The translations under genes and the position numbers were made by a program. A DNA stretch of 64,000 bases from Joostella atrarenae (GTDB taxonomy: Bacteria; Bacteroidota; Bacteroidia; Flavobacteriales; Flavobacteriaceae): assembly GCF_021764745.1 (NCBI RefSeq), contig NZ_JAETXX010000008.1:62548-126547 (forward strand), written 5' to 3'. Shown piece after piece: positions 17,279-44,385 of the stretch; positions within the stretch are counted from its first letter, which is position 1, and each line of letters begins with the position of its first letter. The notes under the pieces are model-generated. The model searched no databases. It had not been told where the DNA came from and worked only from the letters and a program-made list of their open reading frames with translations.

Positions 17279-17740
17279 TTACTCTACAGTGATGGTTATC
17301 GCATCTTTAACGACTTCATAATAATCACCTGTATTATGAATTCCTACACTTACAATATAATTTCCGGGAGCAGTATCTGTACTTAAAGGATATACTATCT
17401 GTCCTAATCCTTGTACAGAAACTTGTTCTGAGAAATATTCTACCGCTGCTTCATCTAATTCTTCTGATCTAACTTCTGCTATAGAAAATGATAATGGTTC
17501 TGTTCCTAGAACTCCACTTATTTTTTGAGAAACCCACGGGGATTCATTCTCAATCCTTAAGGCATCTAATCTTGGATCTAGCTCTAAGCGAATTGTCATT
17601 GTGTTCGGCAAGTATTCTGCATTCTCAACATCTAAAAACCCAACTTCTTTATCGCAACCTACATTTATAAGCCCTATAAAGACTATCAGTATATATATAA
17701 TTGATTTTTTCATCGAAATTGTAATTTTAAAGTTTATCAA
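17279..17740 (-). CDS. Hypothetical lipoprotein
   Basis: 153 aa. Signal peptide with lipobox (LINVGCDKE). No recognisable catalytic motif. Overlaps the upstream gene by 14 nt, so likely co-transcribed. Confidence 0.5.
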   Translation of the reverse strand: MINFKITISMKKSIIYILIVFIGLINVGCDKEVGFLDVENAEYLPNTMTIRLELDPRLDALRIENESPWVSQKISGVLGTEPLSFSIAEVRSEELDEAAVEYFSEQVSVQGLGQIVYPLSTDTAPGNYIVSVGIHNTGDYYEVVKDAITITVE

Positions 17741-18338
17741 TAATGTAATCGTAATGCATAGAATGTACTACCCCATTTGATGGATGAATATCTGCTGAAG
17801 CTATTTGAGCATCTCGAACTGTATTTCCATCCGCAGAATTAAATTTTACAAATACAGGACCAACCCCATATACTGGATCTATCTCTTCTTCTGTAAAAAG
17901 TTGAATCTCTGCATTTCCAATAGAAGTAATAAACACCCCTCCATCTTGCCTTGCCGGAATATCATCTCGCATATAAACATCTGTGAATACATGGTTTAAT
18001 AATATTTCTTTACAGACTTCAGGATCTGTTTCTGCAATCGTCTCTAAATTCTGATTGTACAGCCATCTTCTAATAGAATGAGATGTTAATCCCATAAACA
18101 TAATTTCATCATAATCAGGATCTTCACCGCTAAATAAATTAGTTAAACCAGCATGATCTATCATCTCTACTGTTAAATCCCAGTTATAATCATCTGTAAG
18201 TAGATATTCATAAATGGTTTTATCCTCTAAGTCTCCGTTTGCAACTCCACTATCAATAAGGTTATTTTTTGTACAACTTAAGCACATAGTGAATACAAGG
18301 AAATAAACTGCTATCTTTTTCATCTGTATAATTTTCAT
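17727..18338 (-). CDS. Fasciclin (FAS1)-like domain lipoprotein
   Basis: 203 aa with lipobox (LSCTKN). C-terminal motifs LLNHVFTDVY and IHPSNGVVHSMHYDYI resemble the FAS1 H-box (HVV...NGViHviD) regions. Confidence 0.45.
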   Translation of the reverse strand: MKIIQMKKIAVYFLVFTMCLSCTKNNLIDSGVANGDLEDKTIYEYLLTDDYNWDLTVEMIDHAGLTNLFSGEDPDYDEIMFMGLTSHSIRRWLYNQNLETIAETDPEVCKEILLNHVFTDVYMRDDIPARQDGGVFITSIGNAEIQLFTEEEIDPVYGVGPVFVKFNSADGNTVRDAQIASADIHPSNGVVHSMHYDYIIDKL

Positions 18339-18339
18339 T

Positions 18340-19899: not shown

Positions 19900-20003
19900 T
19901 TTTTTATTCGTTTTTAATGAATTGTAAAGAAATCTTCACATTATCTATATTGCTTTGGTACTCGTTAGAGCACCTTAGACCTCCATATTACTTTTCATTT
20001 TTA

Positions 20004-23000
20004 TTATAGATTAATTGTAAATCCTAAGGTGTAAATCCTTGGTAACGGATAATTATCTAAGGTGTCTACTCCTGAATAAGGAACTGCTTCTGGATCTAAA
20101 CCTGAATAGTTGGTTAATAAGAATAAATTTTCAGCAGTAAAAAACACTCTTGCCGATTCCATTCCTATCTTTTTCATCCAATTCTCATTGAAATTATAAG
20201 AGAGATTCAACCTTTTTAATCTAACATAATTTACAGTCTCGATATTAGTATCAACCATCGGGTCTGACTGTGGACCATATCCTAAGTTTGCTGTTGGAAA
20301 AAATGGATCATAAGATTCTCCTGCTTCTGCATAACCAGCCTCAGACCAAAAATCTACATCATCAACATCAAAAAACAATCTACTTAAACCTGGACTTCTA
20401 CTATTAGTGTAAGCAGTATAGGGCACTGCATTAATTATAGATTTTGATAAAGTGTACGTAAATAAGAAATTAAGATTGAAATTTCTCCAAGTGATGTCGT
20501 TATTAAAACCTCCTGTAGCCTTAGGTAACGGACTTCCTTTAAAAACTTTATCTAAATCATTAATTCTTCCATCTCCATTTAAATCAGCAATTTTTTTCAT
20601 TCCCACTTGCGTAGGATATGTATTACCAGCTTGATTTTGGCTAACTACAGATCCATCTACATTATAATAATCTGGAATTTCATCTTCGCTGTTTATGTAT
20701 CCATCCTGTACATAAACATTAAACCCAAATAAAGGATTTCCTAATACAAAGTTATCCACATCTTTATCATTAAAACTCTCTTCAAACCTATTATAGTTTC
20801 TTGCAATATTGAAACTAGATCTCCACTTAACCTCTGTATCTCTTAGTAAATCTAACTGTAATGAAAGCTCTACCCCTTGATTAGATGTAGAAAAAGTATT
20901 TCTCCAAGTAGATGTTTCATAATAAACATTTCCAGGAAGTGCAGCATTATAAATCTGATCTTTATTGAATTTATAGTAATAATCTGCTACTAATTTGACT
21001 CTATATTCAAAAAAGTTTAGGTCCAATCCTATATCAAATTGCTGCGACTCCTCCCATCCTAAATTATTATAAGAAACCTGATCTGGTGCTAAACCTGGTA
21101 CTCCTAAGAAATATGGTGAGTTTGCATCTGATACTGTACCATGAGCTAAGTATGGATCTTTAAATTGTATCCCTGTTACCCCCCAAGATGTTCTTAGTTT
21201 ACCAGAACTAAGCCACCAAAAATCTTGCATAAATTCTTCACTTGAAAAATTCCATCCTGCAGCAACAGAAGGGAAAGTTCCCCATCTATTATCTTCTCCA
21301 AAAGTACTAGAACCATCCGCTCTAAGTGTGGCCTCTATTAAATACTTTTGTTTATAATTATATGCTGCTCTTCCAAAGTAACTAAGCAATGTAGATTGAT
21401 TAAAACTAGAAGAATAGTTTCTAGTAATTATAGATACTCCATTCTGATCTATAACTGCAGCAGATTCTGGTATTTCTGGTACATAATGAATATCATCACT
21501 TGCCATTCCTAATCCTAGTCCCCAATTCACTTTATTTATTCTACTAGTATATCCTTGACCCGCCAATAATTCAAGATTGTGAACTTCATTAAGTGTTTTG
21601 GTATAATTTAGAGTATTCTCCCAACTCATAACTATCCCCATAGTATTCGTCCCTTCTGAACGTGACAAGCCATATTGATCATTTAAATAAGATGGCACAA
21701 ATAAATTATTGGTTACTAAAGAAAAATCTATAGAAGGAGTGGATGTAAAGTTAAAGCCACTACCAATATCCCAACTTACTCTCAAGCCTGATCTTAACCT
21801 ATATGTATTATTTTTCTGCTCTGTATCTGCAATACTATTTGCTTGCTGAATAGCAATAGGATTGTCTATACCATACAACGAAGAAGAGGACACTGGAGAC
21901 CCTACCATATTAGCAGAACCATTATTACTATTAGACCCTAAACCTCGGTTGGTATATGCCATATAATTTGTAGAAGTAATCTTTAAGTTTTTTCTTGGTC
22001 TGATATCCATATTCGCCGTTAGATTATAACGATTAAATGCAGTACCTACCATTATTCCTTCTTCGTTATAATGACCAAGAGCTATATTATATTTAAATAA
22101 TTCTGAACCCCCGTTTACGTTTAAATTTACATTTAGGGTTTTTCCTGTTTGGAAAAAATAATCCCACCAATTTGAACTATTGTTATAATAATTATTCAAA
22201 CTATCTTGTAATTCTGGTGTAAATGCTCCTCCAGTTCTTCCATTACCCCAAAACCAATCTAAAACTCCAGATGTTCCCCAAGACTCTTTATAAGATTCAG
22301 GTATAATGTAAGTCCTTGTGGCAAAGTCATAGTAAGCAGCTGTAGCCCCTTCTGCAAACTTCAAAGCAAACTGACGCTCTGCATTCCCTATAGTTTGTAC
22401 AGGAGTTTTAGGTAATACACTATACCCTGTAGATACACTTGCACTAATCTGTGCTTTTCCTGTTTTACCCTTCTTAGTTGTGATAAGAACCACACCATTA
22501 CTTGCTCTAGACCCATATAAAGCAGCCGCAGAAGCATCTTTTAGGACCTCCATGGATTCTATTGTTGCAGGATCTATATCAGCTAAACCACTAACTCCTA
22601 AACTAGAGTTCGTTTCCGAAATAATTGGAATCCCATCGACTACGTATAAAGGAGATCCATCATTGATTAAACTTCCATCAGGCCCAGCAACCATTAATGA
22701 ATTCTGACCTCTAATATTAACAATTGTACCTGTTCCTCCAGGAGAACCAGAACGATTTGTAACTGCAACTCCAGCCATCTGCCCCTGCATAAGATTTTCC
22801 AGATTTGAAGAAGGCATATCTTTAATTGCGTCTGCTTTTACTGAAGAAACCGAATTGATTAGTTCTTTTTCGGTTCTCTCCCCATAAGCTACAACAGTTA
22901 CCTCTTCTAAAGAGTTTACATCCTCTTCAAGTGTAACTACAAGATTCGTATTTTCACCGATAACTATCTCTTTACTCTTATAACCTAGAAAAGTAACCTT

Positions 23001-23462
23001 AATAGAAGGTGTTACTCCTGGTTTAACAGGAATATCTATAACAAATTTACCTTCTAAATTTGCAGAAACACCAATCATAGTTCCTGTAACCATAATTGTT
23101 GCTCCAGGTAATGTCTCTCCATTAGTACCTTGAACAACTCCCGAAACATTTAAATATTCTTGAAGATTTCTTTTGGCTGGAATAATAAGATATAATTCAT
23201 CTCCTTGAGGTTCTACAATATAATCTCTTCCTACCAATCTTGAAACTGCATCTATAAGCTCTACATTTTCAAAATTTGCTTCTACAATTCTATCTAAATC
23301 TAAGGTTTTACTACTATAGAAGAATTCTACATTTGATTGTTCTCTAATTTCTTTTAATGCTTCATGAAGTGTTACTTCTCCCATATTCATGGTAACTTTT
23401 TGGGCAAAAGCAAAAACTGATACATGCATAAAAACCATAAAAATAAAGAGTGTTCGCTTCAT
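20004..23462 (-). CDS. susC: SusC-type TonB-dependent transporter with N-terminal STN signalling extension (anti-sigma-coupled)
   Basis: The ORF-track start at 23531 adds 23 aa before a clean signal peptide MKRTLFIFMVFMHVSVFAFAQ, so the likely start codon is 23462-23460. An STN-like segment (VTMNMGEVTLHEALKEIREQSNVEFFY) precedes the CarbopepD_reg domain and the TonB box (EEVTVVAYG). The C-terminal beta-barrel ends in ...TINL. Confidence 0.85.
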   Translation of the reverse strand: MKRTLFIFMVFMHVSVFAFAQKVTMNMGEVTLHEALKEIREQSNVEFFYSSKTLDLDRIVEANFENVELIDAVSRLVGRDYIVEPQGDELYLIIPAKRNLQEYLNVSGVVQGTNGETLPGATIMVTGTMIGVSANLEGKFVIDIPVKPGVTPSIKVTFLGYKSKEIVIGENTNLVVTLEEDVNSLEEVTVVAYGERTEKELINSVSSVKADAIKDMPSSNLENLMQGQMAGVAVTNRSGSPGGTGTIVNIRGQNSLMVAGPDGSLINDGSPLYVVDGIPIISETNSSLGVSGLADIDPATIESMEVLKDASAAALYGSRASNGVVLITTKKGKTGKAQISASVSTGYSVLPKTPVQTIGNAERQFALKFAEGATAAYYDFATRTYIIPESYKESWGTSGVLDWFWGNGRTGGAFTPELQDSLNNYYNNSSNWWDYFFQTGKTLNVNLNVNGGSELFKYNIALGHYNEEGIMVGTAFNRYNLTANMDIRPRKNLKITSTNYMAYTNRGLGSNSNNGSANMVGSPVSSSSLYGIDNPIAIQQANSIADTEQKNNTYRLRSGLRVSWDIGSGFNFTSTPSIDFSLVTNNLFVPSYLNDQYGLSRSEGTNTMGIVMSWENTLNYTKTLNEVHNLELLAGQGYTSRINKVNWGLGLGMASDDIHYVPEIPESAAVIDQNGVSIITRNYSSSFNQSTLLSYFGRAAYNYKQKYLIEATLRADGSSTFGEDNRWGTFPSVAAGWNFSSEEFMQDFWWLSSGKLRTSWGVTGIQFKDPYLAHGTVSDANSPYFLGVPGLAPDQVSYNNLGWEESQQFDIGLDLNFFEYRVKLVADYYYKFNKDQIYNAALPGNVYYETSTWRNTFSTSNQGVELSLQLDLLRDTEVKWRSSFNIARNYNRFEESFNDKDVDNFVLGNPLFGFNVYVQDGYINSEDEIPDYYNVDGSVVSQNQAGNTYPTQVGMKKIADLNGDGRINDLDKVFKGSPLPKATGGFNNDITWRNFNLNFLFTYTLSKSIINAVPYTAYTNSRSPGLSRLFFDVDDVDFWSEAGYAEAGESYDPFFPTANLGYGPQSDPMVDTNIETVNYVRLKRLNLSYNFNENWMKKIGMESARVFFTAENLFLLTNYSGLDPEAVPYSGVDTLDNYPLPRIYTLGFTINL

Positions 23463-23581
23463 TATTTTCACAATTTCACATTCATACCGCCTCAGGAAGC
23501 AAGTAGCTCCCTTCGATAGATTTTTTTTCATACATTTATATGATTTTTGTTGTTAATTGATTAGTTAACAGCATCCAAAAA

Positions 23582-23614
23582 CCGGATAGAACGACCAAAT
23601 ACTATCCGGTTTTT
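23582..23614 (-). terminator. Hairpin CCGGATAG-N12-CTATCCGG with flanking T/A runs, between the anti-sigma gene and susC
   Basis: Read directly: aaaaaCCGGATAGaacgaccaaatactATCCGGttttt. A possible intra-operon terminator/attenuator, with T-runs on both strands. Confidence 0.5.
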
Positions 23615-23622
23615 AACTGTTT

Positions 23623-24822
23623 TTATTTTAATATTTTTATTTCATATTCATCATTATTTTTATTCACCTGATACTTTACTTCTGATGTTTTAGCAATCAT
23701 ATCCAATACTTTTTTTATCGGAGTATCTTTCTTAGCTACACCAGTAAAAGGAATACTTTTAAGCTCCTCTTGCTGAAAACTTACTTTAAAACCATACCAT
23801 CTTCCTATTTTGGTTAGTATGGCTTCTAGATTTTCATTATCAAAAAAGAAAACACCATCCTTCCATGCACTAAAATTTCGCACATCAACATCACTTAAAA
23901 ATACTTTTGGATCATTATCAAATTTTAAATACCCTCTTTTACCTGGAGTTAAAACAACTTCTCCAGTTTGCTCCGAAGACAATCTTACTTTACCCTCTAC
24001 GAGTGTTGAAGAAAAGAAATTATCACTTTTATATGCACTCACATTAAAAGAAGTACCCAAAACAGTTACATCCTGATTCTTGGTATGTACAATAAACTGA
24101 CCTTTATTTTTTACTACTTCAAAATAAGCCTCCCCTTCTAAAACTACTTCTCTGGTATCTCCTGTAAAAGCTTCTGGGAATTTTAGAGTTGAATTAGAAT
24201 TTAACCATACTTTAGAGCCATCGGGAAGAATAACATTATAAATACCACCTATTGGAATATATAAAGTGTTATATCCAACCTCTGCGAGATCATCATTGTT
24301 ATCTTCAATTTTATACTCTAATGTTTTATTAGTATTATTAATCTGAGTATGTCCAGAGGAAAAAATAGTTTCATTTTGATGAGCCCCTAAGTCTACCTCC
24401 TTTCCATTAGATAAAACAAGTGTAGCCTTAGGATGACCTGCATTGATTTCTACCAAATTTTCTTCAGTAATTTGATCACTTGTTTTAAAGTTTTTGAAGA
24501 TATACACACTGACTAATAACGCTATTATTAAAATTGCAGCATATTTATACATCCCTGCAATATACTTTTTACGTTTTTGCGTCTTATTACTAGCAATAAT
24601 AGACGTTACTCTTTTATAAGCAGCATCTTTATCTATTGAGTTATAAAAATTTTGCTTAGCATTTATCCTTTCAGGACTAACAATACTATCATATAACTTT
24701 CTATTGTCCTCTTTCTCTAGCCACTCATCTAGCAACGCTCTCTCCTTAGAGTCGATGTCTTCTATAATTGATTTTAAAATCAACTTTTCGATAGCGTGTT
24801 TTGAATGCTGATTCATGCCCAT
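23623..24822 (-). CDS. FecR-family anti-sigma factor (single-TM, periplasmic sensor domain)
   Basis: 399 aa. Central TM helix (AAILIIALLVSVYIF) and a C-terminal FecR/DUF4974-like region. Lies between an ECF sigma gene and STN-containing susC. Confidence 0.8.
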   Translation of the reverse strand: MGMNQHSKHAIEKLILKSIIEDIDSKERALLDEWLEKEDNRKLYDSIVSPERINAKQNFYNSIDKDAAYKRVTSIIASNKTQKRKKYIAGMYKYAAILIIALLVSVYIFKNFKTSDQITEENLVEINAGHPKATLVLSNGKEVDLGAHQNETIFSSGHTQINNTNKTLEYKIEDNNDDLAEVGYNTLYIPIGGIYNVILPDGSKVWLNSNSTLKFPEAFTGDTREVVLEGEAYFEVVKNKGQFIVHTKNQDVTVLGTSFNVSAYKSDNFFSSTLVEGKVRLSSEQTGEVVLTPGKRGYLKFDNDPKVFLSDVDVRNFSAWKDGVFFFDNENLEAILTKIGRWYGFKVSFQQEELKSIPFTGVAKKDTPIKKVLDMIAKTSEVKYQVNKNNDEYEIKILK

Positions 24823-24909
24823 TTTGTTACTTATATATTGAATACTAATAATTATTCAATGGTTCTCAGTATGAAGAGCACAAATAAGAGGAAATGGGTG
24901 GAAAAAACT

Positions 24910-25395
24910 TTAAAAAAATAATCTTTTTAACAAAAACAATATGTAAATGACAAGAAATGAATAATTATTCAAACGACTCTTAAGCAACTCTAAAGCTCTC
25001 GCTCTCTGAGATTTAACAGTATTCACAGATATATTTAAATCTTCAGCAATATCTTTATATTTTAAACCTTCTATACAAGATAATTTAAATACAATTTTAC
25101 ATTTTTCAGGTAATGTCTCTAAAGCATTTAGTAATACAGAATGTACATCCTCTTCTAAAGAGAATTCTTCAGACTCACTCAATTGGTCATACTTTTGCGC
25201 ATCTAAAGAAACCACTTTATCCCTTTGCTTTATAGAGCGCAACGCCATGTTTTTAACCATTGTATAGAGATAAGCTTTTAAGTCTCTAACTTCCTCTAGG
25301 TCTTTTCTTCTTTCCCACAGGTAAACCATACACTCCTCTACAATCTCCTCCGACATACTTTCATCTTTTGTATACTTCATACAAAACGATAGCAA
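24910..25395 (-). CDS. ECF-type RNA polymerase sigma-70 factor
   Basis: Region 2 (YLWERRKDLEEVRDLKAYLYTMVKN) and region 4 HTH (LPEKCKIVFKLSCIEGLKYKDIAEDLNISVNTVKSQ). The in-frame upstream sequence (...SESYKELFYDFYPRLLSFC) is conserved sigma region 2.1 but contains no ATG. The track start is a TTG, so the true start is uncertain and the N-terminus probably extends to ~25430-25460. Confidence 0.75.
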   Translation of the reverse strand: MLSFCMKYTKDESMSEEIVEECMVYLWERRKDLEEVRDLKAYLYTMVKNMALRSIKQRDKVVSLDAQKYDQLSESEEFSLEEDVHSVLLNALETLPEKCKIVFKLSCIEGLKYKDIAEDLNISVNTVKSQRARALELLKSRLNNYSFLVIYILFLLKRLFF

Positions 25396-25832
25396 GCGTG
25401 GATAAAAATCATAAAAAAGCTCTTTATAAGATTCAGATGTGATTTTAGAATTTGCGATAATATTTAATTATTATATGTCCTTTTAATTACTATTTCTTAA
25501 TGAAGGCGCTCAATATAATTCAATTTTATTATATAAACACATCACTATATTACATTCTCCTATAGCCAATAAAACTAAAACCGCGGAAAATTTTAAGGCA
25601 GCAAGAGCAATTGTAAGAATTTTCAACAAAACGTCTGTCGCTTCTTTTCAAACTCAAAGAAGATTAAATCATATTTACTATGAATCTAAGTCTAAAGACT
25701 ATGCGTAAAAACAGAGTTCAGTGGTGATATTTTTTTTATATTTTTTCTCCCACCCCATTATATATTTCTTACGAGAATAGAATTAACACCTTATCCTTGT
25801 AACAAAATGCACGATTATGTACATAAAAAAGC

Positions 25833-25858
25833 TACCAATATCGGCAGCCTTTCTCTAT
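25833..25858 (-). terminator. Rho-independent terminator downstream of the giant ATPase gene (GCUGCCGAUAUUGGUAGC hairpin plus U6 on the minus strand)
   Basis: Plus strand reads aaaaaaGCTACCAATATCGGCAGCC. The same motif family is seen at 15897. Confidence 0.6.
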
Positions 25859-25878: not shown

Positions 25879-28800
25879 TTACTGGAGTCCCCGTTGGAGA
25901 ACTTCTTTAATACCTTCAAGGTTTTCAGAAAACTGCATCATTTGCGCTAGCACTTGTGCCATTTCATTTTTATCGCCAAAGCCTTTTAGCTTATTATTTT
26001 TCTGAAAAGTTTCCTTTATTTGTTCCCAGCGATCAAATTCAGTAGCACTCATCTGACCTACCAATTCTTTATATTTTAAGAGGTTTGCCTCAGCTGATGA
26101 TGTTAATGTTTGAGATTCACTTTCATAATGCGATAATAATAATGTTTGCAATTCATCATCATTCATTACAGGCACTACTTTAGCCACTAATTTATTCATA
26201 TCTCTATAAGAACCTTGAAGCTTAAATGATGGCTCTACGCGATATTCATCTTCCATAGCTGCACTCTTTATATACATTGTATTAACCTTTAAAATCGAGT
26301 TTCTAATTTTAACGATTTTCTCTAATACAGAAACGTATTCGTCAACCTCTTGCTTTGTATAATTACCTTCAAGATCAACCTCTTTGTTATTGTTCTCAAT
26401 TCTATCTAATAGTCTATAAACATCAGCAAAATTCTTACTGCTTAGCTGATGTAAAACTGGATTGGAAGTAAGCGAATTCTCAATTAAACTTAACCTAAAT
26501 AAATGAGCCGTATCTCCAATAATATCTCCTAAATTATAAATATCTGCCCTATTTGAAAGCATATCAGGAATTCTAAACTTTTCACCGCTCTCAGTATAAG
26601 GATTTCCAGCCATTATAACACAAAATTTCTTCCCACGAAGATCATAAGTTTTCGACTTTCCATTAAAAACACCTTCAACTTTTCGAGTACCATCGGAAAG
26701 GGATATAAACTTTTGCAAAAATTCTGGATTACAATGCTGAATATCATCTAAATATAGCATCACATTGTTACCCATTTCAAAAGCGAGGTTCAACTTCTTA
26801 AGCTCTTCTCTTGCTGCAGAATTATTTGCAGAAGCAGGGTCTACAGAGGTTATTTCGTGACCAATAGCAGGTCCATTAATCTTCATAAAAATAAGACCCA
26901 ATCTATTCGCTATATACTCCATCAACGTAGTTTTACCGTATCCAGGAGGCGAAATTAAAAGCAACATTCCCATTCTATCTGTTCGCTTTTGGTCTCCAAC
27001 CGTTCCCAATTGTTTGGCTAAATTATCTCCGAATAAGGGCAAATAAACTTGATCTATAAGCTTATTTCTAACAAAAGAACTCAATATTCTTGGCTTAAAT
27101 TCTTCTAGCCTAAGCATTTCCTTAAGCGAAACTGTAACTTCATGTTTTGCTCGTTTATAGGCATTATATGCTGGTACTTTTTCAGAAAAATAATTAGTTA
27201 AATGAGAAACAAAATCATGGTAATTAAAATTATAAACACCGTTACGGATAGATAAATGTTCTCCTCGTAGACCTACTATTTCTTCTGATGGAGAAACGAA
27301 TTTAGTATTTAATGCAGACTCATCTCCAAAAAGAATTAAACACACAACCTCATCAACATAGTTTAATTTAAAAGTTAGATTATCCTCTCCTAGACTATGC
27401 AAATAAGCTCCAACCCATTGTTGCACTAATGCTATCTTTGATTCATAAGAACCAAGGTTTTCAAGGCTGTTTTTAAACCTTAAATCACCTTTCTCTTCTT
27501 TTAGTTTATTTAGAAAGCCTTCTTTTATCTGAATTGCTACGCCACTCCTTTTAAAATCATTATCATTCTGAAGTTCTTCAAAAAGATAGTTACTAATATC
27601 AGTTGCTAGACTCGAATTAAAAATGCCTGTATTTTTTGAAAACTCGATAATCGACAATTGAAGCTTTTCTATGATAAAATTGTATTCCTTTGTGTTTGGA
27701 AAAAACTGAATTACATCTCCAGAGGCTTTTATGGTTTGGTTTAAGTGTTTTTTTTGTTCCTCTCCTATAAAGTTCCAAAAATATTGAGCATAAGCTCTTA
27801 TTCTTGGAGGATAAGATAACAGCTCCAAAGCTTTGTGTTTCGCTATAAATACTGATAAAATAGCTGTTGCATCTAAATCGTGTACTCCTTTAACATAACC
27901 CTCAGAATAATCTTTACTACTTTCTTCTTGAACCAACTTTAATAATGCTTCTTCAGAAAGCTCCAAAACATCTTTAGGGAATTTTTTAAAAATCTTAAAA
28001 GCTAAATAAGCACTTCGATACACAACATCGTTTTCCGAAATATAATCTTGGTTCCAAAATTCTTGAGATTCTAATAGCGTTTCATTTTCTATCTTCTGAT
28101 AAAAATCTGTTCCAGTAAGATGGTATTGCAAACTTCCATCAACATATAAAATTGTAAGATCTAAGGATTGATTATTAACACCAAACTTATGCTTTCCTAA
28201 ACGAATTATATTATTGCCATCTTCATATAATTCTTTTTTATCTTTAAGCTTACGCAGCGAATCTTCTTGAGCTGATTTTAATAAAGATTCTATCTCTTCA
28301 GCTTTCCCGCTATCTCCCATTTCTTGGAGCTGCTTAGCAATATCCCGCGACTTACTAACTAGCATGTCTGAAGCGAAATATGCATTTATATCTTTAGCTT
28401 CAGAAAAAGATTCTGCCTTTTTTCTTACCCCATTTAAAATCCTTTCTGCAGAATTTTGAAGAGCAATCGCCCTTTTATTTCTCTTTTCTACTAATTGATT
28501 TTTTCTAGCCTCAAAAGCATTATAGATCTCCTCTCTTTTTTCAATGATAAGACTGATAAACTCTTCAAAATCTGCAAATTTACCTTCTAACTCTTCTAAT
28601 TGAATGGATATTCTTGTTTGGAAATCTTCACACTTCTCTGGTGTATCAGAAATATCCAAGTAGTTAATTATACTCTGATCGATCAATTTAAGCTGTGCAG
28701 CAAAATCTGCCTGAGCTTCTTTGCTTCCTAAAGATTTTTGCTTCTTTTTAATCCTCGCTTTTAATTGATTAATCGTAGAAAAAATTAAAGAAATATTATT

Positions 28801-30753
28801 AATTATTTCTATAGAATGAGAGGTGTCTTCTATTTTTAAATTAGAAACTACATCTATAAGAAGTTCTAAATCTTTAGATATTTGATTTACCTCTTCCTCT
28901 AAATTTTTAGCGTCAATAACTTTTGCGATAGCATCTAGCGATTTCTCTTTTTCTTTCACCTTATTTTCATAAGGCATTAAAGCTTTATCATCTAGCAAAA
29001 ATTGCACACAACGTTCAGAAATCTTTTCAGATTGCTCTGCGATTCTATTTTCAAGTTCGTCAATAAATTTTTTATCTAAATAACGAACCTCCTTTAAACT
29101 AATAGCTTCTCCTCGTAAAGCACGTAACTGAGTGAGAAAATCTACAAAATCATTAATACTTTTAAAACTCGTGCTCTTAATTTTATTAAAAAGATGCGTA
29201 GCCGTTTTATCTATTTCCTGTGTTTTCTTTTGCGCATTCTTTTTTAACTGAAGTACTTTTTGAAATTCATCTATTGCAGCATTTGCTGCCTTATTAATTT
29301 CTTGTAACGGTTCATTTAAAAGTTTAGTTTCTTCTTCATTCAACCAATAATATGAATCTAAAATGTTTTTAGATTGCTTTGCCAAATCAGAATACAAACC
29401 ATCATAATTATCTTCTTTATTCAGTAAATTAACCAAACCATTTACTTCAGCCATCGCCTTCACAATGTCCTTATTTCCTATTTTATAAAGTAAAGAGTCT
29501 TGATGTTCCGACGGAATAATATCTCCTTTGAGATAAGGAGTTTGCCATATCTGAATTACATGATGTTTGCTTTGCTCATCTTCATTTTTGAAATAACATA
29601 ACTCACCATTATCTAATATTGTAAATCCGTTGCATATTATTGGAGTTTGTATTTTCTGAAGAATTACATTATAGCTCATTAAATTATACAAACCGCTTTC
29701 AGGAGCATAAAAAACATATAAATAATCCTCACCATTGGGAGAACTAATTCTCTCTTGAAACTTTACATTGGGAATACTATTATCAAAAATATTATACTCC
29801 CCAGTTTGCAAATAATAACCTGTTGGAAAAATCACTCCATGATCATCTGGAAGTAAAATACAACTGTTCTTGATACTCTCAATTTTCTGTACTTCCTTCA
29901 GCTTATGATTATAAATAAAATACCGAGCTTCCTCTTGGAAAGGCTTAATTTCGATAACAATTAAGTTTCCTAAGTTGGCAAATTTATATTGACCGTCATC
30001 TAGAGTTTGATCTCTATGAGTAACCTCTTCAGCATAAATACCTTTACCATTCTCTGTATTATCCTCCACTTTTATGGTAAGATCTCCGCCTATAGTTTCA
30101 ACGAAAACCTTATCCAAAATAGAAACATGAGCATGGAGACCTTGCCGATGCATATCTCTAGTTACCTCCTGCCAATTAAACTCATGTTGAGAAGGTAGCT
30201 TATATTCATGCTCACTACGATTATCTATATACTTTAACTGACCATCTTTTATTAACCACTTAAACGTTTTTATATCGGTCACACTATCACTAAGCTGAAA
30301 AACCATATACAAATAGTTTCCCACGATAGCGAACTTAGAAAAAATAGTATTTCTATAATATTTATATAGGTTTTGAAAGTCAGAATAAAAAACATCATCA
30401 TTTAAAACATCTAAAGAAATAGGATCAAAGTTGTTATTATTGAATTTATAAATACTAATAACATCACTAAGCTTTATATCTGTTCTTAATCCAAAATGAA
30501 CATTGTATCCAAACAAGCAAGTATCCGATAACGACAATATATCTCTAGCGATGCAATTGTTTTCTGTATTTATTCGATTGGTGGCGATAAGTTTTGTTTC
30601 CAAAGATCCAAAAACCTCTTTTCTACCTTCATTAAGGTTTTTTAGACGCTCTTGTAATTCAGTCTTCTGCTTCTGTAATCGATTCTGAATTACCTCATAG
30701 GTTCCAGCATCGAGTTTTTGCACGTTGTCTTCCTTTGTAGATTCCTTTGCCAT
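25879..30753 (-). CDS. Giant (1624 aa) cytoplasmic protein: beta-rich N-terminal region, long central coiled coil, single MoxR/AAA_5-like P-loop ATPase domain near the C-terminus
   Basis: Walker A LLLISPPGYGKTTLMEY (nt ~26935-26960). Walker B VMLYLDDIQHCNPEFLQ (nt ~26736-26753). Sensor-1-like CVIMAGNPYT. Arg-containing IPDMLSNRADIY. No TM segments. Residues ~430-800 are heptad-rich (E/K/L/Q). It is the last gene of the PspA-flotillin cassette. Confidence 0.75.
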   Translation of the reverse strand: MAKESTKEDNVQKLDAGTYEVIQNRLQKQKTELQERLKNLNEGRKEVFGSLETKLIATNRINTENNCIARDILSLSDTCLFGYNVHFGLRTDIKLSDVISIYKFNNNNFDPISLDVLNDDVFYSDFQNLYKYYRNTIFSKFAIVGNYLYMVFQLSDSVTDIKTFKWLIKDGQLKYIDNRSEHEYKLPSQHEFNWQEVTRDMHRQGLHAHVSILDKVFVETIGGDLTIKVEDNTENGKGIYAEEVTHRDQTLDDGQYKFANLGNLIVIEIKPFQEEARYFIYNHKLKEVQKIESIKNSCILLPDDHGVIFPTGYYLQTGEYNIFDNSIPNVKFQERISSPNGEDYLYVFYAPESGLYNLMSYNVILQKIQTPIICNGFTILDNGELCYFKNEDEQSKHHVIQIWQTPYLKGDIIPSEHQDSLLYKIGNKDIVKAMAEVNGLVNLLNKEDNYDGLYSDLAKQSKNILDSYYWLNEEETKLLNEPLQEINKAANAAIDEFQKVLQLKKNAQKKTQEIDKTATHLFNKIKSTSFKSINDFVDFLTQLRALRGEAISLKEVRYLDKKFIDELENRIAEQSEKISERCVQFLLDDKALMPYENKVKEKEKSLDAIAKVIDAKNLEEEVNQISKDLELLIDVVSNLKIEDTSHSIEIINNISLIFSTINQLKARIKKKQKSLGSKEAQADFAAQLKLIDQSIINYLDISDTPEKCEDFQTRISIQLEELEGKFADFEEFISLIIEKREEIYNAFEARKNQLVEKRNKRAIALQNSAERILNGVRKKAESFSEAKDINAYFASDMLVSKSRDIAKQLQEMGDSGKAEEIESLLKSAQEDSLRKLKDKKELYEDGNNIIRLGKHKFGVNNQSLDLTILYVDGSLQYHLTGTDFYQKIENETLLESQEFWNQDYISENDVVYRSAYLAFKIFKKFPKDVLELSEEALLKLVQEESSKDYSEGYVKGVHDLDATAILSVFIAKHKALELLSYPPRIRAYAQYFWNFIGEEQKKHLNQTIKASGDVIQFFPNTKEYNFIIEKLQLSIIEFSKNTGIFNSSLATDISNYLFEELQNDNDFKRSGVAIQIKEGFLNKLKEEKGDLRFKNSLENLGSYESKIALVQQWVGAYLHSLGEDNLTFKLNYVDEVVCLILFGDESALNTKFVSPSEEIVGLRGEHLSIRNGVYNFNYHDFVSHLTNYFSEKVPAYNAYKRAKHEVTVSLKEMLRLEEFKPRILSSFVRNKLIDQVYLPLFGDNLAKQLGTVGDQKRTDRMGMLLLISPPGYGKTTLMEYIANRLGLIFMKINGPAIGHEITSVDPASANNSAAREELKKLNLAFEMGNNVMLYLDDIQHCNPEFLQKFISLSDGTRKVEGVFNGKSKTYDLRGKKFCVIMAGNPYTESGEKFRIPDMLSNRADIYNLGDIIGDTAHLFRLSLIENSLTSNPVLHQLSSKNFADVYRLLDRIENNNKEVDLEGNYTKQEVDEYVSVLEKIVKIRNSILKVNTMYIKSAAMEDEYRVEPSFKLQGSYRDMNKLVAKVVPVMNDDELQTLLLSHYESESQTLTSSAEANLLKYKELVGQMSATEFDRWEQIKETFQKNNKLKGFGDKNEMAQVLAQMMQFSENLEGIKEVLQRGLQ

Positions 30754-30961
30754 TCTATATTACACTGAATTTGTTCCCCTCAACAGAATAATTGAGCGGT
30801 TATTATTTTTTTAAAGTTGATTGTATTTGACGAAAATTACCTAAAGAAAACAGAGGTTTTTTAAAATATAATGAAAGCAGTATTATTAGTAACTCCAATA
30901 AGAACTCAATTCAAAAAACCTCTGTTATATATAGCTATTAATCTTTAGCTAGCGTCTTTAT

Positions 30962-33040
30962 TTATCTATTCAACTTCGATATCGTACTATCTGAAATCCC
31001 TAAACCTTTCGCTAAGTTTAATAAATTTCCAAGCATCGTTTTATCTTCAGCACTATCAGATTTCATCTTAAGATCTGCAATCAAGCTAGCTATTGTTATA
31101 TTCTTAATATCTTCCGTAGAAACACCATATTTAATCGCAAAGTTTCTTACTTTTTCTAGTAAGTTGCCCTTAACATCGTCGCTTCCTAAAATAGCATCCT
31201 TAACTTCTTGAACATTGGTACTACTTTGTACCATTCTATCAAAACCTTTACCTCTTGTTATCTGACCTATAATCTGATCAAAGAACATCGTTTCTCCACC
31301 AACAATATCAATCTTAGCCGCTTTAAGAGCATCTCCTATAACTTGCGCTTGAGCATCTGCTATTTCTTTCTGAATATTGATATTAGCTAGATCTATTTGT
31401 AAGTCTTTGTTTAATCGTAATTTAAACTCTTCGTGTTCTTTACCTACACCATCTAGCTTCTTCATTGCAGCTGCTTTCTCCTCAATTCCTGAAGCATCAG
31501 CAAATGCTTTTTCTTTAATAACATCTGCTTCCGCAAGACCATCTTTACGTTTAGCTTCCGCTTTAGCTTCAATTCCGAGAGCTTCTGCTTTTGCTTTTTT
31601 CTCAATAATATTAGCTTCCACTAACCCTTGACGCTCGTTTGCATCTGCTTTTGCATGCATTACTTGTGCCTCAGACATACCAACAGTAGCCTCTTCTTTA
31701 GCTTGCGCCTCTGCCAATATTTTTCTTGCTTCTGCTTGTTTAGCACTAGCTTCTTTATGAGCTAAAGCTTCAATATTTATCTCTTCAGCTTTTTGCTTAG
31801 CTGCTTCTTTTTGTGCTTCGGCAGCTTTTATTGTTTTAATAAGGCTTTCTTCTGCTAGCGCTTCAGCAGTAGTAATCTTAACTTGTTTATCTCTATCTGC
31901 AGTTTTAAACGCTTGAATATCTTTCATGTTTTCCTGTTCTTCTACTACACCCTTCTCAAGCATAACACGATCACGAATAACATCTTGTATATTCTTTTTC
32001 TCTACCTCTACTACTTTCTCTTTTTCAATTTGCGCTAACGTAACAACTCTTTCTCTTTCTGTAGCCTCTAGCAATCTATCTTTTTCAACTCTTTCTGTCT
32101 CCACAGCATCTGTACGCTCCTTATTTTTAAGAGCTACAATAATTTGACGCTGCATATTCTCTTCAGCTACTTTTACTTTTTCTTCAGTAGAAATCCTTGC
32201 GCTTTCAGATTTTAAACGCTCTTCTTCATTAACCTTTAATGTTTCTGCTTCTTCTCTTGCTTTGATATTGGCAATTTCACGTTTTTGCTGCTCTTCTTTT
32301 TCTGCTAATTGTTTATTAAGCTCAAGAATAGTCTCACGAGCTTCTACATCCTGCTTACGAATAGTTTTCTCTTCATCTCTTTTGATAAGATTCGCTTTCA
32401 TATTTTGAACAGCAGTAAGCTCTGTAATTTTCTTAATACCCTCAGCATCCAAAATATTATCTGGTTTCAACTCTTTTACAGAAGTCTGCTCTAAAAAGTC
32501 AATCGCACAATCTTCTAAAGTGTAACCATTAAGGTCTGTTCCGATAATATTAACTATTTCATCTCTAAACTCTCTTCGCGCTTCATATAGCTCAATAAAA
32601 TCAAACTTTTTACCCACTGTTTTTAAAGCTTCAGAAAACTTAGCTTCAAAAAGGTCTTCGAGAGTAGCAATTTTTGATGCTCGATCTACACCAATAGTTT
32701 GCGCTACTTTTTTAATATATTCAATATCATTATTTACTCGAACAAAAAAAGCAACCTTAATATCGGCTCTCATATTGTCTTTACATATAAGTCCCTCATG
32801 AGCCAGTCTTTCAATCTGAATTTTCTTTACAGAGATATCCATTATCTCAGTTTTATGAAATACTGGTACTGTATAAAGCCCTCTATCTGTAGCTACTTTA
32901 GTCCCTCCAAATCCGGTTCTAATTAGCGCCTGACCCTGAGGTACTTTTTTATAAAACATCGCAATTATTGCGAAATAAACAATTATTAAAAATAGAAGTA
33001 TTCCTATTCCAATGCCAACAAGTGGTAAAATTGATTCCAT
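30962..33040 (-). CDS. yqiK: Flotillin / SPFH (band-7) family protein, YqiK-like, with an unusually long EA-repeat coiled-coil
   Basis: N-terminal TM, then SPFH motifs LIRTGFGGTKV and KDNMRADIKVAFFVRV, which match E. coli YqiK (FVRTGLGGQKV / KDRMRVDVVVAFFVRV). ~300 aa of AEAKAE-type flotillin repeats. 692 aa. Confidence 0.9.
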   Translation of the reverse strand: MESILPLVGIGIGILLFLIIVYFAIIAMFYKKVPQGQALIRTGFGGTKVATDRGLYTVPVFHKTEIMDISVKKIQIERLAHEGLICKDNMRADIKVAFFVRVNNDIEYIKKVAQTIGVDRASKIATLEDLFEAKFSEALKTVGKKFDFIELYEARREFRDEIVNIIGTDLNGYTLEDCAIDFLEQTSVKELKPDNILDAEGIKKITELTAVQNMKANLIKRDEEKTIRKQDVEARETILELNKQLAEKEEQQKREIANIKAREEAETLKVNEEERLKSESARISTEEKVKVAEENMQRQIIVALKNKERTDAVETERVEKDRLLEATERERVVTLAQIEKEKVVEVEKKNIQDVIRDRVMLEKGVVEEQENMKDIQAFKTADRDKQVKITTAEALAEESLIKTIKAAEAQKEAAKQKAEEINIEALAHKEASAKQAEARKILAEAQAKEEATVGMSEAQVMHAKADANERQGLVEANIIEKKAKAEALGIEAKAEAKRKDGLAEADVIKEKAFADASGIEEKAAAMKKLDGVGKEHEEFKLRLNKDLQIDLANINIQKEIADAQAQVIGDALKAAKIDIVGGETMFFDQIIGQITRGKGFDRMVQSSTNVQEVKDAILGSDDVKGNLLEKVRNFAIKYGVSTEDIKNITIASLIADLKMKSDSAEDKTMLGNLLNLAKGLGISDSTISKLNR

Positions 33041-33054
33041 AGTATTAATATTAA

Positions 33055-33759
33055 TTAGTCATTATAAGATTGTACAAAATAAAAGTTGCGATCGGCAGAT
33101 CTTTTAATTATTAAAATACTGGTTCCATAATTTAATGGGTCTCCAGTTAGAGATTTCACGTAAATTGATAATGTATCTCCATTAACTTTAACTTCAGCAT
33201 TCCCCATTTTATCTTCTGATATAGAAGAAAGCAATGTTGCTTTTCTCCCTAAATAATCAATAGGGGCATCTCCATCTTTATTTAAATTCTTAAAAAAGGC
33301 TTTAAAAGGAGTTGTTATTATTTTTGTCAATATCAGCGATGGAAGTAATGCCAAAAGCATTATTACAAAACCAATGGTATTATCGTAGGTGCCGGTAATT
33401 GAAGTTATCATAGCAGTACAAAACCACCAGATAAATATCCAAAATGTAAAAGTGAACATAAACGGAAGTCCTACAAAATTAAAATAGATAAGTAGAATTT
33501 GCCACCATTTTAATGGCTTCCTCCTTTTCCCTACCACATCTTCTTGATTGATCTCTGTATTGGAAATATCTTCAAAGTCCATATTCCCTCCTTCAATACC
33601 AGTATCTACATCCATATCAACATCTACATCGATGTCAAAGTCAGGCTCAAAATCCAATCCCCCAATCATGGTTGCAATCCAATATAGAATTAGAATTATA
33701 AGTAGTATTGATAAGATTATATTTACTTCAGAAAAAAGTATATTGGTTAATTCTGTCAA
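33055..33759 (-). CDS. YqiJ/NfeD-like membrane protein (multi-TM plus C-terminal OB-fold) with an acidic DxD repeat loop
   Basis: 234 aa with 4-5 TM helices. Acidic tract DFEPDFDIDVDVDMDVDTGIEGGNMDFEDISNTE. C-terminal beta-rich segment GRKATLLSSISEDKMGNAEVKVNGDTLSIYVKS fits the NfeD OB-fold pattern. The gene sits immediately upstream of the flotillin, as yqiJ-yqiK does. Confidence 0.55.
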   Translation of the reverse strand: MTELTNILFSEVNIILSILLIILILYWIATMIGGLDFEPDFDIDVDVDMDVDTGIEGGNMDFEDISNTEINQEDVVGKRRKPLKWWQILLIYFNFVGLPFMFTFTFWIFIWWFCTAMITSITGTYDNTIGFVIMLLALLPSLILTKIITTPFKAFFKNLNKDGDAPIDYLGRKATLLSSISEDKMGNAEVKVNGDTLSIYVKSLTGDPLNYGTSILIIKRSADRNFYFVQSYND

Positions 33760-33775
33760 TTTCAGTGATTTAAAA

Positions 33776-34477
33776 TTATTTCATTCCAAGTTGATTCTTC
33801 AACTTACTAAGCTCATCTTCTGCTTTGTTTTCTGAAACATCCGCAGCCTTATTTATTTCATCATCTATAGACTTAGATGTATTAGCTATCTCCCCATAAG
33901 CTTCTGCAAGAGCTTCCTCTTGGGCAACTTTTTCTTTCATTCTTTCTAACATCGAAACAGTTCCTGTACTGTCCAATTCGGCCATTTGCTTATTAAGATT
34001 TTTAGTCGCATTGCTAACTTTTACCCTTGCATTAAGAGTTTTTAACTCATTTTCCCACTTACCTATATTAGATTTTATAGCTTGGATATTTTTTTGAAGT
34101 TGAGCCACATTATTATCAAACTTCTCGGACTCTTGCGTAGCTTGTAATATCTGCTTATCTACTACTTCTTTTTGTAAAAGTGCTTCCTTTGCTAATCTGT
34201 CTGCTTCATTAGCATCCATTTGACCAGCTTGTGCCTTTTTAAGAATTAAAATAGCCTTATTCTGATAATCATCTGCTTTATTCTGATATTCTTCTTTATC
34301 ATTTTTAGCACGTATAGCTAACGCCTTCACCTTAGCCATAGCCTCAAGACTCTTTTCAAGATCTAATTTCATATCCCTAATTCCTTGTTCGGTCATCTTT
34401 ATAGGATCCTCCATTTTATCTATGGCAGCATTAGTTTCTGCTTCGCCAATTTTAAATAATCGTTTAAATATATTCAT
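33776..34477 (-). CDS. pspA: PspA/IM30 (phage-shock protein A / Vipp1 / ESCRT-III-like) family protein
   Basis: 233 aa, fully coiled-coil. N-terminus MNIFKRLFKIGEAETNAAIDKMEDPIKMTEQGIRDMKLDLEKSLEAMA aligns with E. coli PspA [48 protein letters not shown]. Confidence 0.85.
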   Translation of the reverse strand: MNIFKRLFKIGEAETNAAIDKMEDPIKMTEQGIRDMKLDLEKSLEAMAKVKALAIRAKNDKEEYQNKADDYQNKAILILKKAQAGQMDANEADRLAKEALLQKEVVDKQILQATQESEKFDNNVAQLQKNIQAIKSNIGKWENELKTLNARVKVSNATKNLNKQMAELDSTGTVSMLERMKEKVAQEEALAEAYGEIANTSKSIDDEINKAADVSENKAEDELSKLKNQLGMK

Positions 34478-34490
34478 GATTTTCTCTTTT

Positions 34491-34886
34491 TTAGTATTTT
34501 GAAAATTCTATAATTTTATCTGAGTACTCACTCATTAATAAACTCAACGAGTTTAAAGCAGCTTCAAGCTCATTAAGATCCATATTTTCAACTTGTAAAG
34601 TATCCCTAAAGATTACTTTATTTCCTGATTCGTCTAGCGCAAATGCTCCATGTATAATATCTCTGTTTTTTTGCAGTAAATTCTTAAAAACTGCCTCAGA
34701 CTGATTATTTATCTTGAAAAGGTATTGCTCCATTATTAATATAGGTGGAGCTACACCAACAATAAGATTTCGAATACCAGAGTTTTCCTTTTGGATAACC
34801 AAAACGCCTTCTTCAGGGTTTTCATGTGTAATATTGAAGTCTAACTCAAGTAGAAAATCCCGAGTTATGTTAAAATGGTTTTTCAT
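34491..34886 (-). CDS. Small soluble protein, possibly YbjN/YjfI (DUF2170)-like chaperone-fold partner of the PspA paralog
   Basis: 131 aa, no TM. 13-nt spacing to the pspA-like gene. The alternating hydrophobic pattern (GVLVIQKENSGIRNLIVGVAPPILIMEQYLF...) is reminiscent of YjfI-type proteins that precede PspA paralogs. This is a family guess only. Confidence 0.3.
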   Translation of the reverse strand: MKNHFNITRDFLLELDFNITHENPEEGVLVIQKENSGIRNLIVGVAPPILIMEQYLFKINNQSEAVFKNLLQKNRDIIHGAFALDESGNKVIFRDTLQVENMDLNELEAALNSLSLLMSEYSDKIIEFSKY

Positions 34887-35090
34887 AGATTATAGTTAGG
34901 TTAATGTTTAAATTTTTCGATGTTAATATTACAAAAAAATATTAACAAGCTTATTAAAGAAGACTCATAAGTTCCCCTATAAATATTATAAATATCACAA
35001 TCATACTTTATCATCTTTTAATTATTAATTCTTTTTTAATTATAAACAAATGCTGCATTTGAGAACAAAACCACAATGAATGTCATTTTT

Positions 35091-35154: not shown

Positions 35155-35913
35155 ATGTCATTATTTGGAAAAAATATTAGAAAAATAAGAAGTTTAAAAT
35201 CGATGAGCCAGCAGGCATTTGCAGACTTATTTGACCTAAAAAGAGGCACTCTAGGAGCTTATGAAGAAGGACGTAGCGAACCTAAAATAGATACTATTAT
35301 TAAGATTGCTAATTATTTTAGCATTCCAATAGATCACTTGCTAACAAAAGAATTAACCGTAAACGAGCTTTTAAAATTTCGTGGAGGTGTTGAACGTTAC
35401 AATACGGAAATATCGAATCAATTATTTTTTAAAAGAATTCCCTGTATCCCTTCAGAAAGAATTAAAGAGTATTCTGAAAATTTTAATAACACTGATTATA
35501 TTGAGAATATTCCCTATGTATTATTGCCAATCACAGAAGGATCTGAAATGAGAAGCTTTATAATTAACAACCTAGAAATGAGTAAAAACAATAAAGGTTT
35601 TTACCCTAAAGATGTTGTTATTGGTAGTAAAGTAGATAATTTATCTCCAGAAATAATACAAGATGGAAAATTATATATAACCGTCTTAAAAGAAGAAGTT
35701 ATATTTAGAAGAATCTTCATTTCAAACACTAAAATCACCCTAAGAGCAGATCATCCAGGAGTTGAAGACATCATTCTAAAACTTACTGATATTAAAGAGC
35801 TCTGGAGAGTAGACTATGTTTTTTATCACCGAACATTAGAAAACAACACCGATTTAGAGGATAAAATAATGAAATTAGAAGAGCAATTTAAACAATTAAA
35901 ATCTGAATTATAA
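35155..35913 (+). CDS. XRE-family HTH transcriptional regulator with LexA/CI (peptidase S24)-like C-terminal domain
   Basis: N-terminal HTH: IRKIRSLKSMSQQAFADLFDLKRGTLGAYEEGRSEPKIDTIIKIANYFSIPIDHLL. The C-terminal beta-rich domain has a GSEM segment (compare S24 GDSM) and a ITVLKEE Lys region. The catalytic dyad is not certain. Confidence 0.6.
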   Translation: MSLFGKNIRKIRSLKSMSQQAFADLFDLKRGTLGAYEEGRSEPKIDTIIKIANYFSIPIDHLLTKELTVNELLKFRGGVERYNTEISNQLFFKRIPCIPSERIKEYSENFNNTDYIENIPYVLLPITEGSEMRSFIINNLEMSKNNKGFYPKDVVIGSKVDNLSPEIIQDGKLYITVLKEEVIFRRIFISNTKITLRADHPGVEDIILKLTDIKELWRVDYVFYHRTLENNTDLEDKIMKLEEQFKQLKSEL

Positions 35914-40454: not shown

Positions 40455-40463
40455 AATATGGTT

Positions 40464-41999: not shown

Positions 42000-42004
42000 A
42001 CTCT

Positions 42005-44374: not shown

Positions 44375-44385
44375 TATATGATTTA

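Follow-up and report, generated by a model that had tools for sequence, protein, structure and literature searches.

What would a bacterium do with an operon that puts a PspA protein, a flotillin and a giant soluble ATPase next to one another? The question is raised by a cassette of five open reading frames (ORFs) on the minus strand (25879-34886) of the window, that is, the whole 64,000-nucleotide (nt) stretch of Joostella atrarenae DNA analyzed here. An initial annotation, made without database searches, had taken this cassette for a candidate undescribed membrane-associated stress or defense system. We consider it fairly probable that the cassette represents, in Bacteroidota, a conserved operon for envelope stress and membrane maintenance, in which the ATPase would remodel assemblies of flotillin and/or PspA. 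The system cannot be called undescribed: published work already covers the cassette, the architecture of its domains and the divergent regulator, Pfam assigns the large protein to the families DUF3686 and DUF7902, and a homologous Pseudomonas aeruginosa operon (bacABCDEF) comes with experimental data and phenotypes.

An operon already catalogued and its Pseudomonas counterpart

The five ORFs lie at the coordinates given by the initial annotation, and ORF analysis together with Pfam searches bore out their content, their strand and the 13-16-nt spacing of the first four. In order of transcription, they encode a soluble CesT/Tir-superfamily chaperone-like protein of 131 amino acids (aa) (34491-34886), a PspA/IM30 protein of 233 aa (33776-34477) that resembles ESCRT-III, a YqiJ/YuaF (NfeD-like) membrane protein of 234 aa (33055-33759), a flotillin-like SPFH protein of 692 aa (30962-33040), and a soluble AAA+ protein of 1624 aa with DUF3686, DUF7902 and AAA domains (25879-30753). 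The gene for a 252-aa regulator is transcribed divergently on the plus strand (35155-35913). The first four genes are separated by gaps of 13 nt (the CesT_Tir_1 gene directly precedes pspA), 16 nt and 14 nt, and the flotillin and ATPase genes by 208 nt. Of the one-operon layout proposed earlier, the gene order thus stands, while this longer, hairpin-bearing gap had gone unmentioned.

Searches with hidden Markov models (HMMs), proposed earlier as a check for the 131-aa protein, assigned it to Pfam CesT_Tir_1 (8.9e-56), with YbjN (1.4e-4) and CesT (~1e-4) as further matches. The PspA protein matched PspA_IM30 (2.6e-40) and aligned over its full length with Vipp1/PspA chains of known structure (6e-14). 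In the 234-aa protein, an acidic linker and a beta domain at the C-terminus accompany three hydrophobic segments, and a Pfam search gave no match of its own; we place it in the YqiJ/NfeD group because its homologues match YqiJ_N (4e-7) and NfeD, its Hymenobacter orthologue is annotated DUF1449, it has the three hydrophobic segments, and its family HMM matches P. aeruginosa PA3730. The flotillin matched Band_7 (2.3e-13); its single hydrophobic segment (residues 1-34) is an N-terminal membrane anchor, and the protein further has the Band-7 domain and a long coiled coil in its E/A/K-rich middle. A PDB sequence search with the flotillin and the CesT-like protein gave no match. By hydropathy, hydrophobic segments are confined to the YqiJ-like protein and the flotillin, and the remaining cassette proteins are soluble, as had been claimed for the largest of them.

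A CesT/Tir-PspA-YqiJ/YuaF-Band-7/flotillin-AAA+ operon was described by Ravi, Anantharaman et al. in a purely computational study (mSystems 2024, preprint 2020; PMC11237479), with Dokdonia donghaensis ANH61663.1 as the example, a divergent "cHTH+Protease" gene listed in the supplement, and an extra HKD phospholipase D noted in some Proteobacteria. The window holds the same five products in the same order with the same divergent regulator, which makes up the same six-gene layout. Nothing of substance differs; both operons come from Flavobacteriaceae, though from different species, and Dokdonia ATPases are 72-73% identical to that of the window. The cassette is therefore already catalogued by the comparative genomics of 2020-2024.

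Judged by homology, P. aeruginosa bacABCDEF (PA3732-PA3727, the "biofilm-associated cluster") is the proteobacterial version of the cassette. The P. aeruginosa locus in our set encodes, in order, a DUF2170 protein, a PspA_IM30 protein, proteins of 213 and 688 aa, a DUF3686 protein and a PLDc_2 protein, followed by YaeQ, RecJ and LasB (locus L085); the DUF3686 protein measures 1746 aa and its cluster at 90% identity comprises 3222 member sequences. The downstream RecJ and LasB genes, which we take to be PA3725 and PA3724 in PAO1 numbering, fix the numbering, so the ATPase is PA3728. The naming of a "PA3728 ATPase" agrees with that assignment (PMC8190622), as do the masses published for PA3729, PA3730 and PA3732 (PMC2587700).

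The ATPase of the window is 41% identical over 1634 aa to BacE/PA3728, its orthologue, and the flotillin 46% identical over 634 aa to BacD/PA3729; the PspA protein shows 26% identity to BacB/PA3731 (family HMM 2e-32), and the YqiJ family HMM matches BacC/PA3730 at 8e-41. The homologues of BacB, BacC, BacD and BacE stand in the same order in both operons, and a long structured spacer (149 nt in P. aeruginosa) lies in front of the ATPase gene. The operons differ at the end, where P. aeruginosa carries an HKD phospholipase D gene (bacF) after the ATPase gene and the window a terminator and no phospholipase D gene. They differ also in control, proposed to involve sigma-54 and BacA in the bac operon and a divergent HTH/S24-like (HTH, helix-turn-helix) repressor in the window.

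Several experimental results are available for the Pseudomonas operon. Reverse transcription PCR (RT-PCR) yielded products over all junctions, indicating co-transcription; BacB-F accumulate 6-13.5-fold in a bacA mutant; and the crystal structure of BacA is CesT-like (PMC10948618). PA3731 is induced by osmotic shock, and its mutant has defects in biofilm formation, rhamnolipid production, swarming and virulence (PMC2587700). In cystic-fibrosis isolates, PA3728 was found recurrently mutated in three independent studies, and PA3729 is among the convergently regulated genes (PMC8190622). The 2024 BacA paper notes the likeness to the six-gene context of Ravi et al. and states that experimental data for the Ravi operon do not exist; which domains BacC-F contain is not described in it (PMC10948618). 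A sequence-level equation of the Ravi operon with bacABCDEF was not found stated in either paper.

Gene linkage and distribution

The constancy of the gene partnership was assessed in a census that took one genome per species, the best 80 of at least 588 matching stretches, and four additional plasmid loci, 84 in total, with neighboring genes scored by iterated HMMs of the window proteins. These loci are biased toward relatives of the query (Bacteroidota and the Planctomycetes-Verrucomicrobia-Chlamydiae group), and the fractions that follow are not population estimates. Where enough upstream DNA was available, a flotillin gene was present in 66 of 68 loci, and in 65 of the 68 the ATPase gene directly followed the YqiJ-flotillin pair, with YqiJ immediately in front of flotillin and all three genes on one strand. 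The linked loci span Bacteroidota, Planctomycetota, Verrucomicrobiota, Clostridia, Desulfobacterota, Actinomycetota, Deinococcota and Pseudomonadota. PspA was found in 33 of the 67 loci having more than 6.5 kb upstream. The association of the ATPase with PspA and flotillin that had been postulated thus holds for the YqiJ-flotillin pair and for PspA in about half of the loci only. Because the flotillin and the YqiJ-like protein are near-constant companions and PspA is present only sometimes, gene linkage makes the former the more likely direct partner of the ATPase. When the remaining ORFs near the ATPase gene in the 84 loci were clustered, no additional conserved partner emerged, and the large clusters proved to be shadows of known genes, either antisense or in an alternate frame.

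Wherever the CesT-like gene occurred in the census, it accompanied PspA. The divergent HTH/S24-like gene was found along with both CesT and PspA in 31 loci, all of them from Bacteroidota (Flavobacteriales, Cytophagales, Sphingobacteriales and Bacteroidales). The YqiJ-flotillin-ATPase triad stood alone, without PspA or CesT, in census loci of Planctomycetota, Verrucomicrobiota, Clostridia, Desulfobacterota, Actinomycetota and Deinococcota.

A hybrid arrangement was observed on pQBR103, a megaplasmid of Pseudomonas fluorescens SBW25, where YjfI-PspA-rhomboid-DUF2491-DUF350-DUF1190-glutathionylspermidine synthase is followed by YqiJ-SPFH-DUF3686 ATPase. This operon unites two PspA contexts that Ravi et al. 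gave separately (PMC11237479).

Such a distribution could also be produced by two adjacent but functionally separate modules, a scaffold machine of YqiJ, flotillin and ATPase on the one hand and an independent Psp-type stress unit of regulator, CesT and PspA on the other, which would be mere neighbors in Bacteroidota and some Proteobacteria. The free-standing triads agree with this explanation, as do the greater spread of abbreviated operons without PspA reported by Ravi et al. (PMC11237479) and the five unrelated genes between PspA and YqiJ on pQBR103. It is at odds with the Bacteroidota loci, in all 31 of which CesT and PspA lie directly upstream on the same strand, at gaps of only 13-16 nt in the window, and with P. 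aeruginosa, where all six genes are co-transcribed and rise jointly in the bacA mutant (PMC10948618). Further, an SPFH protein of Bacillus subtilis brings PspA to the membrane and is required for this placement. Because the linkage in Bacteroidota is tight and the Pseudomonas genes are co-regulated, cooperation of the two modules is favored and their functional independence appears unlikely.

The ATPase family is large, with more than 4700 clusters at 90% identity and, for aa 1-700, 930 clusters at 50%. Full-length relatives with 33-46% identity occur in Proteus, Pseudomonas, Vibrio, Halomonas, Streptomyces, Nonomuraea and Deinococcus. No copy of the ATPase was found in 50,697 phage records, and 13 of 72,556 plasmid records contained one, mostly on megaplasmids or chromids. 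Across genera of Flavobacteriaceae, the ATPases are 67-80% identical, which, as far as sequence divergence can tell, resembles a cellular function that is being kept rather than a defense gene in rapid evolution.

Within Cytophagales, the ATPases of Echinicola are 67-68% identical to the Joostella protein, as near as those of other Flavobacteriaceae genera, and those of Hymenobacter and Pontibacter only 46-52%. The Echinicola case suggests lateral transfer of the cassette between orders.

These figures bear on the role in abortive infection or phage defense that the initial annotation had offered, in which the ATPase would sense infection and the membrane proteins would kill or arrest the cell. 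PA3728-PA3732 are indeed upregulated in all phage-infected P. aeruginosa samples (PMC12041424). The cassette is moreover self-contained, with flanks that are not conserved, the HTH of its regulator resembles control proteins of defense loci, and in P. aeruginosa the gene after that of the ATPase encodes an HKD phospholipase D. In PspA systems, however, induction by phage is a classical envelope-stress response, and the Pseudomonas induction can be explained as this general Psp reaction. Against PADLOC-DB v2, the ATPase gave only a marginal mad8 match (E 9e-4, 16.8 bits, confined to the P-loop, with no stretch passing), and the other four structural proteins gave none. The lack of copies among the phage records, their scarcity among the plasmid records and the high identity between genera argue in the same direction, and the P. 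aeruginosa locus occupies a fixed chromosomal position beside recJ and lasB, unlike a variable defense island. A defense function thus found no support, and we regard it as very improbable.

The giant ATPase, its spacer and the regulator

In the ATPase, Pfam searches recognized DUF3686 (2.5e-179, aa 32-469), DUF7902 (1.3e-23, aa 590-674), and both AAA_5 and AAA (~32 bits each, aa 1264-1388). On account of the DUF3686 and DUF7902 matches, the 1624-aa protein is, by domain assignment, a member of a recognized family, one without functional characterization. It is 100% identical to an NCBI protein named "DNA repair ATPase" [Joostella atrarenae].

The architecture of the protein was examined in AlphaFold2 models built on an alignment of 57 sequences, homologues that share 47-82% identity with the query. 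That of aa 1-720 (predicted local distance difference test (pLDDT) 85.9) contains a long helix (aa 16-48), a beta-rich region (aa 54-404, encoded at 29542-30594, minus strand) and helical bundles (aa 421-719). When compared with the PDB using Foldseek, this N-terminal model retrieved WD40/beta-propellers (Elp1, DCAF1, IFT-A and Vps18; E 1e-6 to 1e-4). The model of aa 840-1624 (pLDDT 86.3) comprises a small beta unit, an all-helical domain and an AAA+ alpha/beta core in which a beta-hairpin precedes sensor-1, followed by a lid and a helical C-terminal domain. The AAA+ module (~aa 1255-1450; 26404-26991, minus strand) is closest in fold to MoxR/AAA_5 members, and the same protein carries the coiled coil and the beta-propeller N-terminal to it. 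The HMM and Foldseek searches that had been recommended for the large protein thus returned a family and a beta-propeller. PDB sequence searches, run with the single sequence and with a profile of the 57 sequences, gave matches to p97 and RuvB, in the P-loop region only, and yielded no solved structural relative.

The catalytic motifs read from the sequence at the outset (GYGKTT, LYLDD, a sensor-1 Asn and an Arg) are present, and a comparison of 25 diverse homologues showed no variation in them (Walker A SPPGYGKTT, Walker B LYLD1336-D1337, sensor-1 N1384 and R1402). The Walker B motif LYLDDIQH (aa 1333-1340; ~26734-26757, minus strand) retains both aspartates, the Gln and the His in all 25, which are 28-48% identical. 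Its acidic pair is DD rather than the usual DE, the catalytic Glu being replaced by Asp in every one of these homologues.

Could the protein be a DNA-repair ATPase, as its database name has it? The name ("DNA repair ATPase" or "ATPase involved in DNA repair" in NCBI and Pfam DUF3686) and the weak RuvB matches in the Walker-A region would favor such a role. However, no DNA-binding or nuclease domain was found with Pfam, the invariant neighbors are membrane proteins, the regulator is without the LexA dyad, and full-text literature searches found no mention of DUF3686 or PF12458. We give a function in DNA repair hardly any credence. The name has spread from Pfam DUF3686 and is unsupported by domains, gene context and the searched literature; it looks like a misleading annotation. 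Full-text searches for "DNA repair ATPase" with flotillin, and for SPFH and NfeD with anti-phage, likewise returned nothing.

RNA folding of the spacer between the flotillin and ATPase genes predicted a long stem-loop (30850-30925, minus strand) with a 16-bp stem, a folding free energy (dG) of -28 kcal/mol and a z-score of -3.8. When the 90 nt that follow the flotillin stop codon were scored against shuffled sequences, 47 out of 75 loci had a stable stem-loop at the same place (z < -2; the median z was -2.96). It recurs across phyla, and its sequence is not conserved. We considered these hairpins as canonical terminators and rejected this assignment, a clear T-run being present in only 7 of the 75 loci. 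The P. aeruginosa spacer is read through in RT-PCR (PMC10948618). The recurrence of the stem-loop suggests a conserved element of attenuation or 3'-end stability that would set the ratio of flotillin to ATPase.

The spacer is also an insertion hotspot (L018, L054, L063, L045, L053, L081, L008, L020, L031 and L075). IS200/Y1-transposase-like ORFs, DUF559-like endonuclease ORFs, small lipoproteins and a toxin-antitoxin-like pair were found there, as were unrelated genes of up to 2.3 kb in total.

At the other end of the ATPase gene, about 25 nt after its stop codon, the terminator announced by the initial annotation was found as an intrinsic-terminator-like hairpin with a U-run (25819-25854, minus strand; GGCUGCC...GGUAGC followed by U6; dG -16.3 kcal/mol, z -3.8).

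The divergent regulator combines an XRE-type HTH (HTH_19/HTH_3, ~2e-11) with a degenerate S24 (LexA/CI-like) C-terminal domain (Peptidase_S24, a weak 0.0034), and its gene was present and divergent in all 31 census loci with CesT and PspA. In an alignment of the regulators, and subject to that alignment, the column of LexA S119 holds Ser in 8, Thr in 11 and other residues in 13 proteins, and that of K156 holds Arg in 21, Gly in 7, Asn in 1 and a gap in 3, never Lys. Because the Ser-Lys dyad is not conserved, self-cleavage in the manner of LexA is unlikely from the sequence. The CI/LexA-like label chosen earlier fits the domains and not the catalytic dyad. The protein is probably a non-cleaving LexA/CI-like repressor, whose S24-like domain probably serves dimerization or signal sensing.

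The divergent promoter region contains a perfect inverted repeat, TGTTAATAT-N9-ATATTAACA (34921-34947, minus strand), ~35-60 nt upstream of the first gene, which is a possible operator. Since its sequence is not conserved in other genera, we can only infer this function. Across 32 regulator-CesT intergenic regions, the shared words were AT-rich only (TATTTGC and TTGCTAAT, near the regulator start in several genera); these may be ordinary Bacteroidota promoter elements.

The cassette sits between an alginate-type polysaccharide utilization locus (PUL; 5744-25395) and a fucose/sulfate-type locus (38352-53548), in agreement with the setting between two polysaccharide loci noticed earlier. The former includes an alginate lyase/heparinase-II/III, a PL6-like chondroitinase B, two SusC/SusD pairs, an extracytoplasmic function (ECF) sigma factor and FecR; on the other side, TetR and an ABC1 kinase are followed by two GH29 enzymes, one GH95 enzyme and a sulfatase. 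The flanking TetR, ABC1 kinase and FecR genes were next to the cassette in no other census locus. As the flanks are unconserved elsewhere, the PUL neighborhood carries no functional information.

A proposed membrane-scaffold machine compared with known systems

The initial annotation already had an ATP-driven machine act on or with membrane scaffolds, and in general terms this idea appears right to us. For its mechanism, we infer the following scheme, including each physical contact, the direction of ATPase action and the role of the regulator. By analogy with established SPFH-NfeD pairs, the flotillin and its YqiJ/NfeD partner would build SPFH scaffolds on the cytoplasmic membrane. PspA would be held or delivered by the CesT-like chaperone and would polymerize on damaged membrane at or near these scaffolds, as in the YdjI-PspA pair of B. 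subtilis. The ATPase would oligomerize through its MoxR-type AAA+ module and grip the scaffold with the beta-propeller and the helical arms, and ATP hydrolysis would assemble, remodel or recycle the flotillin assemblies (primarily) and those of PspA. The divergent HTH/S24-like protein would repress the operon until stress is sensed.

Several points weigh against the view of the cassette as an envelope-maintenance operon with a remodeling ATPase. PspA cannot be an obligatory substrate of the ATPase, because about half of the loci lack it. MoxR-type ATPases are normally paired with a von Willebrand factor A (VWA) partner and have the canonical Walker B motif hhhhDE; no VWA or metal ion-dependent adhesion site (MIDAS) partner was matched among the operon proteins, nor was one a conserved neighbor in the 84 loci, and with DD instead of DE in Walker B the ATPase module may be a slow switch rather than a motor. 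Expression of flotillin and ATPase may be partly uncoupled, given the frequent stable hairpin and the occasional inserted genes in the spacer. The counterpart in P. aeruginosa begins with a DUF2170/YjfI-type chaperone gene and the window with CesT_Tir_1, and pairwise comparison of the CesT-like protein with BacA/PA3732 (DUF2170) gave no detectable similarity. The biofilm and rhamnolipid phenotypes of P. aeruginosa point to no specific molecular activity.

Known systems share parts of the cassette. E. coli yqiJ-yqiK and B. subtilis yuaF-floT pair an NfeD-like protein with an SPFH2-type flotillin, as the window does, and B. subtilis pspA-ydjGHI provides a functional link between SPFH proteins and PspA; all three are without the giant AAA+ ATPase and without the CesT-like gene. 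The classical Psp system (PspF-PspABC) relies on the sigma-54 activator PspF and on PspB and PspC, and domain searches of the operon proteins gave no match to Sigma54_activat, PspB or PspC. Compared with MoxR proteins (CbbQ, NorQ and RavA) and with the AAA_5 modules of dynein and midasin, the ATPase differs in having no VWA partner and a DD Walker B, and in that its module stands at the end of ~1250 aa of beta-propeller and helical domains; the similarity to these families is marginal (32 bits).

The likeness to Vps4 and ESCRT-III lies in the adjacency of an AAA+ gene to pspA, a member of the ESCRT-III superfamily; it hints at a remodeling of polymers that depends on ATP, an analogy drawn by Ravi et al. 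(PMC11237479). The window ATPase has neither the MIT domain nor the classical-clade AAA module that are the hallmarks of Vps4. We tentatively suggest, as a possibility that we hold with some doubt, that the DUF3686/BacE ATPase is a bacterial ATP-driven scaffold remodeler, a hexameric MoxR-type analogue of Vps4 from a different AAA+ clade, whose beta-propeller arms would grip flotillin/NfeD cages, and PspA polymers where present, to assemble or recycle them. A 2025 review states that a Vps4-like ATPase appears to be absent in bacteria and lists the partner roles as undetermined; if our suggestion is true, it would answer the lack of such an ATPase for bacterial ESCRT-III. Among candidates for a regulator of bacterial SPFH scaffolds that depends on energy, the ATPase, 1600-1900 aa long and present in thousands of genomes of at least eight phyla, ranks first because flotillin and NfeD almost always accompany it. 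Equating the Ravi operon with bacABCDEF links this computational prediction to an experimentally tractable pathogen.

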